Assembly: GCA_963737905.1 (NCBI GenBank)
Contig: CAVTUQ010000007.1
Location: forward strand, 64,001-128,000
Origin: an uncultured delta proteobacterium
GTDB lineage: Bacteria > Desulfobacterota > Binatia > UBA9968
Length of the DNA stretch: 64,000 nt
Direction: 5' to 3'
Both the position numbers and the translations under genes were made by a program. The first letter of the stretch is position 1. Each line of letters begins with the position of its first letter. Below are positions 20,555-62,987 of this stretch, piece after piece. Under the pieces are notes generated by a model. The model saw only the letters and a list, made by a program, of their open reading frames with translations, was not told where the DNA came from and ran no database searches.

Positions 20555-21376
20555 ATGGACGTCACACTTCTCAAAGTTACAGCAATTTTTTATCTTCTGG
20601 CGAGCGCAAGTTTTGTCGTTTATATCTTTCGTCTACGTGACTTCGTTTCAAGTTTGTCTCCGATCATTTTATTCACTGGGTTTGCGGTCCATACAGCCGG
20701 TCTGGCAGTTCATTTTTTGCAAACCGGTTACGCCGGCGTTGCTGAGTTTCGTGAGGCACTGTCATTTTACGGCTGGCTTCTTGTGGCGGGGTATCTGTTG
20801 ATTCAACTCAAGTATCGGCTTGCGATCTTGGGTGCCATCATCGCACCCTTGGCGTTTCTTATGACCCTCGCCGCCATCGCATTTGGCAGCGGCGCTGGCG
20901 AATTGCCCCCGGGACTGAAGACGGTTTGGCTGCCGGTTCACGTGACTTTGGCATTTCTCGGTAATGCCGTTTTTGCCCTGGCTTTCGGCGTGAGCCTGAT
21001 GTACCTGCTGCAGGAAAGTTATCTCAAGCGTAAGAAGATGACTTCCGTGATGAAGCGATTTCCCTCGCTAGAAGCGTTAGACAAGTTGAACTATGTGCTG
21101 CTAGTTTGGGGGTTCCCGTTAATGACTTTGGGTATCCTCACGGGCAGCATGTGGGCCGGGATTTATTGGGGCAACTATTGGTCGTGGGATCCCCGCCAGA
21201 TTTCTTCAGGCATTGCCTGGCTGTTTTATGGCGTCTTGTTGCATGGCCGGATCACCGCCGGCTTGAGAGGAAAAAAGGCGGCACTACTGACCATGGTTGG
21301 GTTTGTCGTCGTCCTGGGTTACTTTCTCTGGGGAGATTCGCTCTTTCCCAGCCGGCATGGGGGCCGGTTCGAATAG
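20555..21376 (+). CDS. ccsA: Cytochrome c biogenesis protein (CcsA family)
   Basis: WLPVHV and GSMWAGIYWGNYWSWDPRQ (WWD domain). Confidence 0.92.
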   Translation: MDVTLLKVTAIFYLLASASFVVYIFRLRDFVSSLSPIILFTGFAVHTAGLAVHFLQTGYAGVAEFREALSFYGWLLVAGYLLIQLKYRLAILGAIIAPLAFLMTLAAIAFGSGAGELPPGLKTVWLPVHVTLAFLGNAVFALAFGVSLMYLLQESYLKRKKMTSVMKRFPSLEALDKLNYVLLVWGFPLMTLGILTGSMWAGIYWGNYWSWDPRQISSGIAWLFYGVLLHGRITAGLRGKKAALLTMVGFVVVLGYFLWGDSLFPSRHGGRFE

Positions 21377-21379
21377 CAG

Positions 21380-22660
21380 GTGCACAAGGAAATTATCATC
21401 GTTGGGATGAATCATCGGAGCGCGCCGATCGAAGTAAGAGAAAGCGTGGCCTTCGAGACTTCCTACGTCCGTGAGGCTTTGGGACGGCTGCGGGCCTACC
21501 CGTCGATCCAGGAGAGTGTCATTCTATCGACGTGTAACCGTGTGGAGGTGGTGGTGGCGGCGTTGAATGGTGAGTCTGCTTCTGTGGAAATCAAAGCATT
21601 CTTGGCCGACCAGAGAGCGCGGAAAAATCGCCATAGTCTAGAGGACCACGTTTATATTCACCAGGGTCCGGCAGCGGTTCGGCATCTGTTCCGTGTGGCT
21701 GCGAGTCTGGATTCCATGGTTGTAGGGGAGCCGCAGATCTTGGGTCAGCTAAAGGAATACTATAACGCTGCTCAGGCCGCCGGCACCGTCGGAACGATTC
21801 TTCATCGTCTTTTTCATCGCTCATTCTCCGTTGCCAAGAGAGTCCGGAACGAGACGGCTATCGCGAGTCGCGCGGTATCCGTCAGTTCCGTGGCCATCGA
21901 CCTGGCAAAAAGGATCTTTGACCGTCTTGACGACAAAACGGTGATGCTCATCGGAGCGGGCAAGATGGGTGATCTTATGGCTCGACACCTCCAACGCGGC
22001 GGCGTGCACAGCGTGATGGTCACCAACCGAACCTTCGACCGAGCCGTGGAACTCGCCGGCCGGATTCATGGCAGCCCGATTTTGTTCGAGGATTTTCCCC
22101 GTTATCTCACACTCGCCGATCTCGTTATCGGTTGCACCGGTTCTCCCGAGATCCTGGTAGACGTCGCGACGGTGGAAAAGGTTCTTCGCGAACGCAAACA
22201 AAAGGCGATGTTCTTGATTGACATCGGCGACCGCAGAAATTTCGATCCCGCGATTAACGCAATCGACAATGTGTATCTCTACAATATCGATGATCTCAAA
22301 GGCGTCGCCGAGGAGAATCTTCACGAAAGGTCCAACGAGGCCGAAAAAGCGGAGGGAATCGTTCAAGAGGAGGTCCAGAATTTCACGCGCTGGATCGATT
22401 CTTTGGAGCAAGTCCCGACGATTACGGCTCTCCGGCAACGGTTGGAAGAGATACGACAGCGGGAGCTCGAAAGATCGCTGGGCGGCAGCCTGAGAGACCT
22501 CTCGGAAAAACAGAGGGAGGCCTTGGAAGACATGACCACGGCGATGATGAACAAGATTCTTCACGCTCCTCTATCGCAGCTAAAGCTCAACTCCCAAGAC
22601 GACGACGAGAAAACTCTCTACATTGCCGCGCTGAAGAAACTCTTTGACTTGGAGCGGTGA
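21380..22660 (+). CDS. hemA: Glutamyl-tRNA reductase
   Basis: LSTCNRVE, HLFRVAASLDSMVVGEPQILGQ, IGAGKM. Confidence 0.97.
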   Translation: MHKEIIIVGMNHRSAPIEVRESVAFETSYVREALGRLRAYPSIQESVILSTCNRVEVVVAALNGESASVEIKAFLADQRARKNRHSLEDHVYIHQGPAAVRHLFRVAASLDSMVVGEPQILGQLKEYYNAAQAAGTVGTILHRLFHRSFSVAKRVRNETAIASRAVSVSSVAIDLAKRIFDRLDDKTVMLIGAGKMGDLMARHLQRGGVHSVMVTNRTFDRAVELAGRIHGSPILFEDFPRYLTLADLVIGCTGSPEILVDVATVEKVLRERKQKAMFLIDIGDRRNFDPAINAIDNVYLYNIDDLKGVAEENLHERSNEAEKAEGIVQEEVQNFTRWIDSLEQVPTITALRQRLEEIRQRELERSLGGSLRDLSEKQREALEDMTTAMMNKILHAPLSQLKLNSQDDDEKTLYIAALKKLFDLER

Positions 22661-22896
22661 GCCTAGATAATGCGGACGCGAGCATTCTTCACGGAAGAAC
22701 GACCGAGGAGCAAGCCTCTCCGGTCGCGGGCAATGGCCTGTGTCTTGAGGAGGCCTGCAAACTGCAGTGACGGAGCGTAAAGTGAGGCAGAAATGCGAGC
22801 TTATAGCCAAGCTCCCTAGAAATCATTGCGGCTCCATGTCCCAGTGCCCGCTCGCTACGATGCTTCCTCCTCGGTCCATGAATAGTCCGGGCCTAG
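22659..22896 (+). mobile_element. Non-coding hairpin element, family copy A
   Basis: Colinear with the reverse complement of 61660-61911; right end CATGAATAGTCCGGG-C-CTAG; arms GACCGAGGAGCAAGC / GCTTCCTCCTCGGTC. Left end degenerate. Confidence 0.78.
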
Positions 22897-22915: not shown

Positions 22916-23827
22916 ATGAATTCGATTAGGATCGGCACGCGCGGCAGCACGTTGGCTCTGGCTCAAACAACGTGGGTGAGAGAAAAACTCGTAGAGAAAT
23001 ATCCAGGCGCCAGCATCGAAACGATTCTTATCCACACGAGCGGGGATCGGTTTTCGGAAGCGAGTGTTAAAGCGATAGGCGGCAAAGGTATCTTTACGAA
23101 GGAAATAGAAGATGCCTTGCTACGAAATGAGATCGATATAGCCGTGCATTCCATGAAAGACTTGCCCACCGAGTTACCCGCAGGATTGATCGTGGCGGCG
23201 GTTCCTCAAAGAGAGGATTCCCGTGATGTTTTGGTGAGCGCCGGAGCGAGAAAGTTGAGCGAACTTGTTGCGGGCGCAAAGGTCGGCACCGGGAGTTTGC
23301 GCCGGTCAGCGCAGCTCGTGCATTATCGCCGGGATTTAAGGGTTGTTCCTATCCGGGGAAATGTCGACACCCGCCTGAAGAAGCTCGATCAAGGCGAGTG
23401 CGATGCCTTGGTGATGGCCGCCGCCGGTTTGAAACGAATAGGCCGGGAAGAAAGGATCGCAGAATATGTCTCAAACGACGTCTGCCTCGGTGCTGCGGGA
23501 CAAGGGGCATTGGGTTTGGAATCGCGGGAAGAGGAGTCGATTCGCGTGGAGCTTTCGTTCTTGCATGACCCCGCTACCTTTGCCGAAGTCACCGCGGAAC
23601 GCTCATTCTTGAATCGACTGGGCGGTGGTTGCCACGTTCCGGTGGGGGCACGGGGAGTCGCGGACGGCGAAAATTTGGAACTCTTCGGTGTGGTCGCCAA
23701 TCCAGATGGGAGTTCCCTTTTTCGCGGTGAAATATCCGGCTCTGTAGCGGACGCAGAAGAATTGGGTTGTGAGCTCGCTGAGCGCCTGTTGTCCCAAGGC
23801 GCGCAGAAAATTTTGGTTGCCCAGTGA
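22916..23827 (+). CDS. hemC: Porphobilinogen deaminase
   Basis: IGTRGSTLALAQ, GGKGIFTKEIE, AVHSMKD, RGNVDTRL, LGGGCHVP. Confidence 0.97.
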   Translation: MNSIRIGTRGSTLALAQTTWVREKLVEKYPGASIETILIHTSGDRFSEASVKAIGGKGIFTKEIEDALLRNEIDIAVHSMKDLPTELPAGLIVAAVPQREDSRDVLVSAGARKLSELVAGAKVGTGSLRRSAQLVHYRRDLRVVPIRGNVDTRLKKLDQGECDALVMAAAGLKRIGREERIAEYVSNDVCLGAAGQGALGLESREEESIRVELSFLHDPATFAEVTAERSFLNRLGGGCHVPVGARGVADGENLELFGVVANPDGSSLFRGEISGSVADAEELGCELAERLLSQGAQKILVAQ

Positions 23828-24687
23828 AAGATCCCATACACCCGGCCATGGCTCTCGAAGCGGCAGATAAACCATCAGATTCACCCGATGCCCTTAAGGG
23901 CAAGCGCATCCTGGTGACTCGTGCGCGGTCTCAAGCGTTGAGCTTGGTGCAAAGGATCGAAAGCCTGGGAGGCGAGGTGGTTGAATTTCCCACGATAGAA
24001 ATCAGACCGCCCGAGAGTTACGGTCCTTTGGACCAGGCGATCAGGCAGATAGCGAGTTACGATTGGCTTATTTTCACGAGCGTGAACGGCGTGGAGCAAT
24101 TTCTCAATCGACTTGAAAAGCTTGGAAAAAACCCAGCCGACCTAACAGGTATCGAGGTTGGTGCCATTGGTCCTGAGACGGCAAAAAGGCTAACCGCGGC
24201 GCAAATTCAGCCCAGCCTGGTGCCGAAGCAATATCAGGCTGAAGGTATTCTTGAAGCGCTGATTTCCGATACCATGGTAGGGAAAAAAATATTAATCCCG
24301 CGGGCAGCCAAAGCCCGCGATATCCTGCCGGAAACTTTGCGCCAGTGGGGAGCGCGGGTTGACGTCGTAGAGGCCTACCAAACCGTGTTGCCTCAAGTGG
24401 ATGTTTCGGCGCTTTGCAAGTTGTTGCGTGAAGGCGCGATTGATATGATTACTTTCACGAGCTCCAGCACGGCAACGAACTTTGCGGCCATGCTAGGCGA
24501 TCAGGACCTGCCACGGGTGGTTGCTAAAGCCGTTATTGCGTGTATCGGTCCGATTACTGCAAGAACCGTGGAAGACTTAGGCATGCGATCGGAGGTCGTG
24601 TCAGAAGAATTCACGATTCCCGGGTTGGTCAGCGCGATGGTAGACTATTTTATCCGTATCGCGAATCAAAAAACCGTTGGTGGATAA
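23824..24687 (+). CDS. hemD: Uroporphyrinogen-III synthase
   Basis: [43 protein letters not shown]. Confidence 0.93.
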
Positions 24688-24701
24688 GAGCAGAAAAAAT
24701 A

Positions 24702-25679
24702 ATGGACTTCCCCGCCTACCGCCCGAGAAGATTGCGCCGTAACGAGAGGATCAGAGAGTTGGTGCGCGAAACCACTCTGAGTCCGAAGAATTTCATTTAT
24801 CCGATTTTCGTCGGGCCGGGAAAGAATAGAGCTCAACCCGTGTCGTCCATGCCGGGTGTCGCGCAACTCTCCGTGGACCGCGCCGTTATCGAATGTGAGG
24901 AAGCTCAAGCACTGGGGATTCCTGCGGTGATTCTTTTCGGCGTTCCCGAACACAAAGATTCCGTGGGGACGGAGGCCTATGCGGATAGCGGCATTGTCCA
25001 ACAGGCGATACGCGCTGTCAAAGAAAAGCTTCCCGGGCTACTCGTCATTACCGATGTGTGTCTTTGCGAGTATACCGACCACGGTCACTGCGGCGTGATT
25101 AGGAACGGCGATGTCGATAATGACGGCACGCTGGAGCTACTCGCCAAAGAAGCGTTGTCTCATGCGCGTGCCGGCGCCGACATCGTGGCGCCCTCCGACA
25201 TGATGGACGGCAGGGTCGGAGCGATTCGGAAATGTCTCGACCAAAACGGATTTGAACAGATTGCCGTTATGGCCTATGCGGCAAAGTACGCTTCCGGATT
25301 TTACGGGCCGTTCCGAGAGGCGGCCGAATCGACACCGCAGTTTGGCGATCGACGCTCCTATCAGATGGACCCAGCCAACGCGGATGAAGCCTTGCGAGAG
25401 GTCGAGCTCGATATCCGTGAGGGCGCGGATATCGTCATGGTGAAGCCGGCGATGGCTTATCTCGATATCGTCTACCGCGTGAAACAGAAGTTTGGCTATC
25501 CCGTGGCTGCCTACAATGTGAGCGGAGAGTACTCCATGATCAAAGCCGCCGGGCAGAACGGCTGGGTCGATGAAGAGAGAGTCATGCTGGAAGTACTATT
25601 CGCGATCAAACGCGCTGGAGCGGATATGATCCTGAGTTACTTTGCGAAAGATGTGGCGCGGTTGCTTCACGGTCAATGA
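24702..25679 (+). CDS. hemB: Delta-aminolevulinic acid dehydratase
   Basis: [41 protein letters not shown]. Confidence 0.97.
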
Positions 25680-25680
25680 C

Positions 25681-25771
25681 CGTTCAAGTCGTTCAAGCCG
25701 TTCAAAATGTTCAATCCGTTAAGTCTACAGAGACGATTTGAACTACTGGAACCGTTGGAACGAATTGAACC
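25681..25771. repeat. Tandem 9-mer inverted array (GTTCAA)n-(TTGAAC)n
   Basis: cgttcaagt cgttcaagc cgttcaaaa tgttcaatc ... ttgaacta ctggaaccg ttggaacga attgaacc, between convergent genes. Confidence 0.8.
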
Positions 25772-25778
25772 AGTTTCT

Positions 25779-61349: not shown

Positions 61350-61642
61350 CATTCGTGCAAAGAGCGCGGGTAACGGCCGCGATCACCCCGGGTGTGGTTT
61401 GCTGCCAGCACGGCTGGTGGCAAGATTGTAAGGACCTCGACCTGCCGGGCTACGATTCTTACGGTAAGGGCTCAGCCAATCCCAGCCTGTTGATCGGCGC
61501 CGATGTGGCCGATCCGATCAGCGGCTCATTGCCGCATCGATCCTATCTTTGCCGCGTGCGGCCGGCCGCGGAGCAATCGCCAAAGAAGTCTGCCAGCCCG
61601 CATTCACCCGGCGACATCGACATGATTCAAAAATCTCCCTGA
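61350..61642 (+). pseudogene. C-terminal fragment of a molybdopterin oxidoreductase (dinucleotide-binding domain)
   Basis: RARVTAAITPGVVCCQHGWW...ANPSLLI...DPISGSLPHRSYLCRV with no upstream catalytic domain. Confidence 0.72.
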
Positions 61643-61659
61643 TTGCCGCGACGGGGGAC

Positions 61660-61911
61660 CTAGCCCGGACTATTCATGCTCCCAGGAAAACCCACGACAC
61701 AGTGTCGATCAAGGGGCGAGCTTGGAGGAGCGAAGGCACAGAGGCGAACAGTTCCAATGACGATTAGGGTGTTTGGCCTTGCGCTCGAATTTTTTCCCAG
61801 GTATTCGCTTCAGAACTTAGGTTTGCAGGCCGCCTCCAGGTAGAGGCCCATTGCCTTCGCTCCTGAGAGCTCGCCCTTGATCATTGTTCGCCAGCGAATA
61901 GTCCGGGCTAG
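61660..61911 (-). mobile_element. MITE-like non-coding hairpin element, family copy B (intact ends)
   Basis: CTAG-CCCGGACTATTC ... GAATAGTCCGGG-CTAG; internal arms GATCAAGGGGCGAGCT..AGGAGCGAAGGCA / TGCCTTCGCTCCT..AGCTCGCCCTTGATC. Confidence 0.85.
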
Positions 61912-62987
61912 CGCAGCGCTGGAAGGATTTCCTTGCCCCAGAGATCGATCACCTCGGGAATATCGGGGCCGAGGGGAACGCCGATCGCAACCTGCGTGAA
62001 TCCATCGCGGGCCGCCAGCGAGAATAGTTCCGCGATCCGCTCGCTGCACTGCGCCGCTGTGCCGGCGATGATCAGACGATCGACGGCTTCGTCAGGCGTG
62101 AGAGAGGCGGCGTGGTCGACGCCGCGATTTTCCGCGTACGCTTGGCGCACCATTTGAATCGCCCGCGGGTCGATGCCTTTGGCCTCGAGAACCTCGTCCG
62201 GCCAGCCGGAGACGATATGGGAGACGAAACGTTTCGCGTGCTGTCTGGCGGCCTCGCCGTCGCGCGAAACCGAGGCGTTGAGCAGCATCACTTTGCGCAA
62301 CGGCTCTCGCAGCGGGGATTGCGACCGCGCGGAGTGAAGACGCGCAAGCGAGGCGCTCATGTCGGCAATCCCATAGAGAGTTTGGAGAATCACGCCGTCG
62401 AAGTGGCGCGCGATAAGGTCGAGCACGGCGGGCTTGAGCAGACTCGGACCATAGTAAAGACGGATGGGCGACTGGGTTTTGAAGCGCAGCGCGTATTGTT
62501 CCGCGTTCAAATGAAAATAGGAAGCCAGAATAGGAATATCGGCGCTTCGGAGCGCCTCGCCGGCGAACAGTTTCCGCAATCCCATGGCCAATTCGGCCAT
62601 GATGGCGAGCGGTTTCGCGCGTTCGACTTGATGCGTCAGGATCGACCTCGATCCAGGCCCCAGGCCGAGGGAGATTTCTCTCCCGTTGGTGAGCTCGGAT
62701 ATCGTCGCGAAGGCCATCGCTAGATCCACCGGGTTACGAAAGTAGGGAACCGTGACGGCGGTTCCGAGCTTGACCGGCAAGCGTGCCACGATCGCCGCCG
62801 AGCTTGCTAGCACGCTTCGATATTCCAGATTGTCGTTGGTCCAAACCTGGCTGAAACCGAGTTTCCTCAACGTCTGCCACGCCTGCTCGGCCAGCCCGAT
62901 CAAATCCGGGAGCGAGTAACGATTGAGAACGTGAAGCGGATAGTGTATCCCGATTTCTCCGGTAAATTCTTTTGCTTGGATGGCCAT
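61908..62987 (-). CDS. LLM-class (Mer-like) oxidoreductase
   Basis: GFSQVWTND, LGTAVTVPYFRNPV, ISLGLGPG, IAGTAAQC; the stop TAG lies within the CTAG of the element. Confidence 0.85.
   Translation of the reverse strand: MAIQAKEFTGEIGIHYPLHVLNRYSLPDLIGLAEQAWQTLRKLGFSQVWTNDNLEYRSVLASSAAIVARLPVKLGTAVTVPYFRNPVDLAMAFATISELTNGREISLGLGPGSRSILTHQVERAKPLAIMAELAMGLRKLFAGEALRSADIPILASYFHLNAEQYALRFKTQSPIRLYYGPSLLKPAVLDLIARHFDGVILQTLYGIADMSASLARLHSARSQSPLREPLRKVMLLNASVSRDGEAARQHAKRFVSHIVSGWPDEVLEAKGIDPRAIQMVRQAYAENRGVDHAASLTPDEAVDRLIIAGTAAQCSERIAELFSLAARDGFTQVAIGVPLGPDIPEVIDLWGKEILPALR

Follow-up and report, generated by a model that had tools for sequence, protein, structure and literature searches.

A slowly evolving element in the hemA-hemC spacer of an uncultured Binatia bacterium, read as an old copy of a dispersed MITE family

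What separates hemA from hemC in the genome of an uncultured delta proteobacterium of the Binatia (a class in the candidate phylum Binatota), and does it belong to the hem operon? The question is raised by a 64,000-nucleotide stretch of contig CAVTUQ010000007.1 (assembly GCA_963737905.1, positions 64,001 to 128,000; hereafter the window), in which a reading made from the sequence alone described the 255-bp hemA-hemC spacer as a structured non-coding element inside the operon with a relative at 61.7 kb. Our analysis points elsewhere. The spacer almost certainly holds a decayed old copy of a ~245-bp non-autonomous transposon, or MITE (miniature inverted-repeat transposable element), one of many copies of a dispersed mobile family that is recognised by its terminal repeats, its CTAG flanks and its empty sites in relatives.

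The homology on which the sequence-only reading was built is sound. Aligned to 61640-61930 in reverse complement, the spacer shows a mean column identity of 74%, and nhmmer recovers both the ~213-bp element in the spacer and its counterpart near 61.7 kb at a level that chance would not give (coordinates and E-values in Table 1). The conserved blocks described for the pair (GGCAATGG, GAGGnGGCCTGCAAAC, CGAGC, GCCAA, CCCTA, TCATTG, GTGCC and the end CATGAATAGTCCGGG) are present in both sequences, as are the two versions of the self-complementary arms (GACCGAGG/CCTCGGTC and GATCAAGG/CCTTGATC). Said to align almost without gaps, the two do so over the first ~200 nt; near its 3' end the hem copy is missing ~28 nt that are found in full copies of the family (alignment). 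Nor does the element begin at the hemA stop, as had been proposed: that codon is a TGA at 22658-22660, a CTAG follows at 22663-22666, and recognisable element sequence starts at 22679.

A profile seeded on this pair and iterated with nhmmer (cut-off E<=1e-5; blastn was also used) matched 40 places in the 6.7-Mb genome (here G000), 32 of which cover at least 180 of the ~245 profile positions. Full copies contain no gene and comprise two long-range complementary arm pairs around a non-palindromic core of ~110 nt, and they differ among themselves by indels (alignment). They begin with CCCGGATTATTCAC and end with CATGAATAATCCGGG, are bounded by terminal inverted repeats of 12-15 nt (12-nt form CCCGGATTATTC...GAATAATCCGGG), and when aligned with their flanks have CTAG directly outside both ends. 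This architecture is ordinary for a bacterial MITE. We took a census of ends and flanks across 94 distinct full copies, pooled from this genome and from loci of relatives. Both end motifs were found within 3 mismatches in 57 copies; among these, CTAG stands on both sides in 20, identical tetranucleotides other than CTAG in 4 (CTAA twice, TTAG and CTGG), and differing sequences in 33. A left-end CTAG is present in 31 of the 57, and a match between flanks as palindromes only in none. Copies are intergenic, and 9 of the 32 in G000 lie within 4 nt of the stop codon of a flanking open reading frame (ORF), a position that is expected because the CTAG target holds TAG on either strand.

The family extends well beyond this genome. 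It was matched in 17 of 41 related genomes including G000, or in 15 of 39 when the unpublished G006 and G012 (both weak matches) are left out. Without G000, it occurs in 15 of the 24 genomes of the same taxonomic family and in 1 of 5 and 0 of 11 in the order's two other families, with a patchy distribution by genus. A strict pattern scan of one genome per species, covering 185,579 species, returned 35 stretches in 9 assemblies, a lower bound given that the pattern recovers 26 of 76 known copies; by their titles, five of these assemblies are Candidatus Binatia, two 'Deltaproteobacteria bacterium', one Thermodesulfobacteriota and one Verrucomicrobiota. The exact pattern match in the last (L099) lies in a 127-kb contig of a metagenome-assembled genome, for which mis-binning, mislabelling or horizontal transfer are all possible. 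Our literature searches found no published description of a MITE in Binatota or Binatia, and the family is apparently undescribed in print for Candidatus Binatia.

Empty sites document the movement of the family. When the flanks of copies in G001 (a congener) and in other relatives were mapped onto G000, several pairs of flanks came within a few bases of each other and enclosed no element. One such G001 locus, L094, has gtcCTAA(element)CTAAgc at its filled site, as against a single CTGA in G000, and a second locus (L114) is similar. The same comparison was uninformative for the 61.7-kb copy, as the orthologous gene in G001 ends in a different stop codon with different DNA beyond it.

Of 25 genomes compared at the hemA-hemC junction, two have the element there, G000 and G001; both carry it at the same position, shortened alike at the 3' end and with similar decay at the 5' end. 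Empty junctions in relatives, which the sequence-only reading had suggested looking for, were found in the second congener, G002 (a 32-bp gap), and in the other 22 genomes, G006 and G012 among them, whose gaps of ~5 to ~540 bp gave no profile match at that junction. Several genomes with hemA-hemC gaps of 100-540 bp are among those that give no match to the MITE profile (loci L026-L050). Because the copy is in G000 and G001 and absent from G002, its insertion most plausibly dates to the common ancestor of the first two, after the second congener had split off. Its target would have been the CTAG that lies 3 nt past the end of hemA; the copy has since lost its left terminal repeat and is presumably no longer mobile. 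For the G001 copies with both flanks on one G000 contig (12 loci, with two pairs of loci that each cover one copy), a counterpart in G000 was detected only for the hem copy; ordinary copies thus appear not to persist.

The hem copy has also changed little. Between G000 and G001 (a single species pair, for which eight other spacers served as the baseline), 229 of the 255 spacer positions are the same (89.8%). Identity at fourfold-degenerate sites is 68.8% in hemA (189 sites), 64.9% in hemC (74 sites) and 68.4% (1,205/1,761) over 17 ORFs within ~10 kb, at least one of which is probably out of frame. Finding 26 or fewer differences in the spacer has a binomial probability of 5e-16 at the fourfold rate and of 8e-5 relative to a spacer that is 81% identical, and the hem spacer ranks second of nine in the neighbourhood, the other eight being 55-92% identical. 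Two other causes appear unlikely: a recent recombination tract, since identity at third codon positions beside the spacer is 0.74-0.85 in hemA and 0.80 in hemC, and gene conversion from paralogues, since the closest of these in G000 are 78-80% identical to the hem copy and the two orthologues share a private 5' decay and a short 3' end. Conservation is uneven along the spacer, with 71% identity over the first 31 nt (the dead terminal repeat) and 92% over the other 224 nt (Fisher P = 0.0013), and as read from the alignment the two arm pairs (~44 nt) contain one difference between the two genomes. A small protein encoded by the hem copy was considered and rejected: no frame is conserved as coding, and the single frame open in both orthologues has 8 amino-acid differences in 45 codons.

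Given a spacer identity of 89.8% against 68% at fourfold sites, the hem copy is probably constrained. The earlier statement that it is not in neutral decay thus agrees with its divergence, which is far below that of neutral sites between the two species. On these numbers its rate of change would be about one quarter of that at synonymous sites, and we lean towards purifying selection acting at the level of the host.

A serious alternative, to which we would give somewhat less than even odds, is that the hem copy is a neutral dead MITE, conserved by chance, by a low local mutation rate or by hitch-hiking with packed essential genes. It would have to accommodate 26 differences where ~80 are expected at the fourfold rate, higher conservation in the spacer than at third positions in the flanking codons, the contrast between the dead terminal repeat and the rest, and the singular survival of this copy among those mapped from G001. 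It gains from the predicted fold of the whole hem spacer (-94.7 kcal/mol, z = -1.41), which 19 of 200 shuffles equal; from a nearby 99-bp spacer that is equally conserved (0.919); from relatives such as G002 and G014, which manage with a hemA-hemC gap of ~30 bp and no element; and from the dependence of the comparison on one species pair.

If the family is mobile and its copies encode nothing, which transposase moves it? We searched 25 genomes with PF13701, the profile for transposases of the DDE_Tnp_1_4 type, and scanned the returned loci for the MITE end motifs. A 1,596-bp element in G001 (locus L168, 1361-2956), with CCCGGATTATTCATGGTT...AACCATGAATAATGCGGG at its ends and CTAG directly outside each, encloses a PF13701 transposase whose match is split over two frames (E = 2.7e-93 and 4.7e-35; 312.9 and 121.7 bits). 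Its 1,738-bp relative in G002 (locus L166, 1265-3002; ends CCCGGATTTCTCACC / GGTGAGAAATTCGGG, with CTAG on both sides) has an intact PF13701 frame of 488 aa that scores 500.5 bits against a cut-off of 34.7. The ends of both begin CCCGG and form terminal inverted repeats of 15-18 nt, and the right end of the G001 element is identical over 16 nt (CCATGAATAATGCGGG) to that of one MITE subfamily. Beyond the terminal ~15 nt the insertion sequence (IS) and the MITE are unrelated; with so little in common, the MITE therefore appears to borrow its ends and not to be a deletion derivative.

Both candidate drivers fit the IS1380 family, whose members in ISfinder are ~1.55-2 kb long, with ends starting CC and a 4-5-bp duplication; a 4-bp direct duplication is consistent with that range. 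Their length, PF13701 transposase, repeats and short flanking duplication are all held in common with family members such as IS1247, ISEcp1 and ISPme1. The elements described here differ from these in that their duplication is apparently 4 bp and almost always CTAG, and in that the MITE has no more of an IS than its terminal ~15 nt. IS1247, as entered in Table 2 of PMC3281130, is 1,672 bp long with 16/13-nt repeats and a 5-bp duplication. We consider it likely that the MITE is moved in trans by IS1380-type transposases. Candidate drivers within G000 were rejected at its five IS630-type (PF13358) and 12 IS4/IS5-type (PF01609) loci, none of which has the MITE ends. Pairs of end motifs 0.1-4 kb apart in that genome were MITEs and chance pairs only, and with 2 mismatches allowed the end 12-mer occurs there 580 times, no more commonly than shuffled 12-mers (436-1,056).

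Mobilisation by an IS630/Tc1-mariner-type transposase, which would insert at the TA of CTAG and duplicate that dinucleotide, is the other assignment that we considered for the driver and appears improbable. The title of a 1991 paper by Tenzen and Ohtsubo reports CTAG as the preferred target of IS630, which counts in its favour. CTAG is itself palindromic, so that a duplication of TA within it is not separable from a 4-bp repeat, and in six flank pairs NTAG...CTAN is a slightly better description than a direct repeat of 4 bp. IS630-family elements duplicate TA, according to the portion of PMC2170065 that treats them, and G000 has five PF13358 loci. None of those five has the MITE ends, however, whereas two IS1380-type elements have the same or nearly the same ends together with CTAG flanks, and the four informative flank pairs in the census are direct 4-bp repeats, none of them matching as a palindrome only.

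We examined the arms in an alignment of 86 sequences, on which we imposed the structure of the intact 61.7-kb copy (itself a member). That copy is predicted to fold as a rod, in which the terminal repeats pair and are followed by an outer arm of ~15 bp, an inner arm of ~12 bp and a branched core (-106.4 kcal/mol, z = -5.55). Across the alignment 71.4% of cells are paired, a share that drops to 32-42% once partners are shifted by 1-3 columns, and all 500 shuffles are lower, a test that is inflated by the related sequences in the alignment. Outer-arm helix 4 is paired in 92% and contains double changes from U-A to C-G and from G-C to A-U, each in 21 of the 86 sequences; inner-arm helix 7 contains double changes from A-U to C-G and from A-U to G-C, each in 22 of the 86. 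The outer arm exists in three versions (GATCAAGG, GATCGAGG and GACCGAGG), each with a matching partner, and has therefore undergone at least two independent compensations. Core helices 9, 11, 12 and 15 are 53-60% paired, so a conserved fold of the ~110-nt inner core is poorly supported.

The earlier argument from compensatory change to selection on structure thus survives in part: the double changes in the arms are real within the family, and they are a property of the family, with a core fold that is poorly supported. Nothing favours RNA over DNA as the level at which the arms are constrained, and a constraint on the DNA or on transposition could fit the covariation as easily as one on RNA. 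The compensatory self-complementarity of the hem copy is, on our reading, inherited from the MITE family, in which the master copies that retain matched arms would be those that propagate.

That the family is instead a structured non-coding RNA (a cis-regulatory element or a small RNA gene) spread by transposition, with the core blocks as RNA sites, seems to us quite unlikely. Conservation over the 86 copies, which come from several genera, is at least 90% in core blocks such as GGCAATGGGCCT and GGCCTGCAAAC, the arms co-vary and the intact copy folds far better than shuffles, as the z-score given above indicates; such conservation among copies of an active transposon is nevertheless expected from recent common descent, and the core helices pair weakly, as noted. 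Mismatches in the arms are A:C more often than G:U (151 vs 54, mostly at four columns), with no sense-strand excess of G:U, in a strand test in which four or five columns that are fixed within subfamilies carry most of the weight and which is not decisive. Orientation is unbiased: by a longest-ORF heuristic, of the 32 G000 copies, 16 lie between ORFs on one strand, 9 in sense and 7 in antisense orientation (the latter include a pair that is probably an assembly duplicate), while 12 have convergent and 4 divergent ORFs on their two sides. No Rfam family matched at gathering score in the 64-kb window, a check that the sequence-only reading had proposed, and at E<=10 the two elements gave only SdsR_RyeB, at chance level (16.5 bits vs a threshold of 38, E = 2).

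A palindromic element of the REP/REPIN type, which a RAYT (IS200/IS605-like) enzyme would move as single-stranded DNA, would share the long hairpin-forming arms with compensatory changes and the intergenic position near gene ends. No search aimed at a RAYT gene was made, but we regard this reading as extremely improbable in view of the clear terminal inverted repeats and duplicated CTAG flanks, neither of which REP elements are known to have, and of the IS1380-type partner with the same ends.

We place the probability of the explanation as a whole (a MITE copy, IS1380-type mobilisation, an old insertion and arms inherited from the family) at about 0.85. What weighs against it includes the points allowed above to neutral decay and to an IS630-type enzyme, the mismatch and orientation counts, and the lack of relationship between the IS and the MITE inside their ends. 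To these are added that the transposase gene of the G001 element is either broken by a frameshift or mis-assembled (the frame break lies near locus positions 2375-2391); that no IS with matching ends was found in the G000 assembly (87% complete), the PF13358 and PF01609 loci included; that its one PF13701 locus has neither matching ends nor clear terminal repeats, and blastn with the G001 element was negative; and that among public RNA runs, in short contigs from related strains only, none bridged hemA, the element and hemC. Such contigs, from libraries that may contain DNA, did cover parts of hemA, hemC and MITE paralogues.

What might an operon gain from such a copy? The element is probably transcribed with hemA and hemC, because the genes of the operon lie on one strand and the spacer has no convincing predicted terminator; promoter and terminator scans gave one promoter-like site over the end of hemA and a single weak site like a terminator, numbers close to those found in shuffles. 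As part of a hemA-hemCDB message, the outer and inner arms would fold into a long intercistronic hairpin that would leave the last ~18 nt ahead of the hemC start unpaired. Full copies of the family carry a terminator-like module with a conserved stem and a variable loop, kept in most of the 86 aligned copies (alignment columns ~274-299). This module, identified as a consensus match, is the segment that is absent from the hem copies of G000 and G001, and its absence may permit read-through. It is also absent from one other G001 copy (L095), which is sense-oriented and lies just downstream of a gene, like the hem copy.

Either the hairpin or a DNA site within it may now be useful to the host, which would account for a copy kept nearly unchanged. 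We hold an RNA-hairpin mechanism for the hem copy to be a tentative proposal at best. The fuller version, in which a domesticated MITE forms a selected intercistronic hairpin by which expression of the rate-limiting hemA is uncoupled from that of hemCDB or tuned relative to it, is similarly doubtful. If there is an effect, the analogy with NEMIS and ERIC elements makes a change in the stability of the flanking mRNA its most likely kind: in the sections of PMC2229807 devoted to them, NEMIS elements are reported to alter that stability through cleavage by RNase III and ERIC elements through conformational change.

The likeness to those elements goes further. Correia/NEMIS elements of Neisseria and ERIC elements of enterobacteria are, as those sections have it, also short and non-coding, with terminal inverted repeats and a long RNA stem-loop, and lie between genes that share a transcription unit. 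They differ from the Binatia element in having no sequence similarity to it and in being AT-rich and flanked by TA only, whereas the latter is GC-rich, ~245 bp long, flanked by CTAG and known here from its sequence. The RUP element of Streptococcus pneumoniae offers a parallel for the pairing of MITE and driver, being linked to IS630-Spn1 by common terminal repeats and target preference (PMC2229807, in its account of RUP); RUP is 107 bp long with a TA target and a driver of the IS630 family, whereas the ends of the Binatia MITE match IS1380-type elements.

What goes beyond the routine in these results is only the IS1380-type link and the slow-evolving copy inside an operon. The first would connect CTAG-targeting MITEs with IS1380-type insertion sequences in place of the usual assumption of IS630. 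The second provides, as a copy fixed in an essential biosynthetic operon, a testable candidate for transposon domestication, and would if true be a natural example, from an uncultured phylum, of a transposon turned into a regulatory structure of an operon. A false lead is also removed, in that pairwise covariation among MITE copies is by itself no sign of a riboswitch-like RNA. For annotation, the family explains many 'conserved intergenic hairpins' in these genomes, as well as TAG stop codons contained in the CTAG next to a copy.

Table 1. Features of the hem operon, of the MITE copy in its hemA-hemC spacer and of the full-length copy near 61.7 kb (window coordinates)
Feature	Position	Strand	Remarks
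Left CTAG of hem copy, target tetranucleotide	22663-22666		3 nt past hemA stop; sequence
Remnant like a right-end terminal repeat, GATAATGCGGA	22666-22677	+	Adjoins left end of main element
MITE copy in hemA-hemC spacer, short-3' variant, GACCGAGG subfamily	22679-22891	+	nhmmer E = 2e-52
Degenerate left terminal inverted repeat, CGAGCATTCTTC	22679-22690	+	8/12 matching CCCGGATTATTC; alignments
Outer arm, left half, GACCGAGGAGCAAGC	22701-22715	+	Pairs with 22862-22876, one C:C mismatch; helices 4-6
Inner arm, left half, GCGGGCA	22726-22732	+	Pairs with 22845-22851; helix 7
Non-palindromic core with conserved blocks	22733-22844	+	Inner helices 53-60% paired
Inner arm, right half, TGCCCGC	22845-22851	+	
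Outer arm, right half, GCTTCCTCCTCGGTC	22862-22876	+	
Right terminal inverted repeat, GAATAGTCCGGG	22880-22891	+	11/12 matching consensus; sequence, alignments
Right CTAG of hem copy, target tetranucleotide	22893-22896		Preceded by an extra C at 22892
CTAG flank at opposite end of full copy	61660-61663	-	Sequence
Full-length MITE copy, GATCAAGG subfamily, both terminal repeats intact	61664-61907	-	nhmmer E = 2e-64
Terminator-like module of full copies	61685-61707	-	5-bp stem CGACA/TGTCG, 3-nt loop, T-run; consensus scan
CTAG flank of full copy	61908-61911	-	Its TAG is the stop codon of a 359-aa ORF, 61908-62987(-)
Cytochrome c assembly protein gene	20555-21376		Pfam
hemA (glutamyl-tRNA reductase)	21380-22660		Pfam
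hemC (porphobilinogen deaminase)	22916-23827		Pfam
hemD (HemD)	23824-24687		Pfam
hemB (ALAD domain)	24540-25679 (ORF)		Pfam

The Pfam assignments around the 255-bp spacer identify a hem operon with all of its genes on one strand (Table 1). The 99-bp spacer that follows hemB (25680-25778) is 92% identical between G000 and G001 and stands at the top of the nine spacers compared. Within the hemA-hemC spacer, the remnant to the left of the main element is probably left over from an insertion that was earlier, tandem or nested, or else from a junction of abutted ends; the orthologue in G001 (L048, ~1250-1280) repeats the order of a right-end-like followed by a left-end-like sequence, and does so more clearly.

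Three further observations concern individual copies. Two copies in G000 (C25:358519-358755 and C46:7809-8045) are identical, including ~45 nt of flank on each side, and lie in opposite orientation; they are probably one locus assembled twice. A third G000 copy (C11:22459-22721, L154) contains a tandem duplication of ~17 nt in its core, and two copies in G023 (L078 and L079) carry an insert of ~24 nt, placed alike in both.

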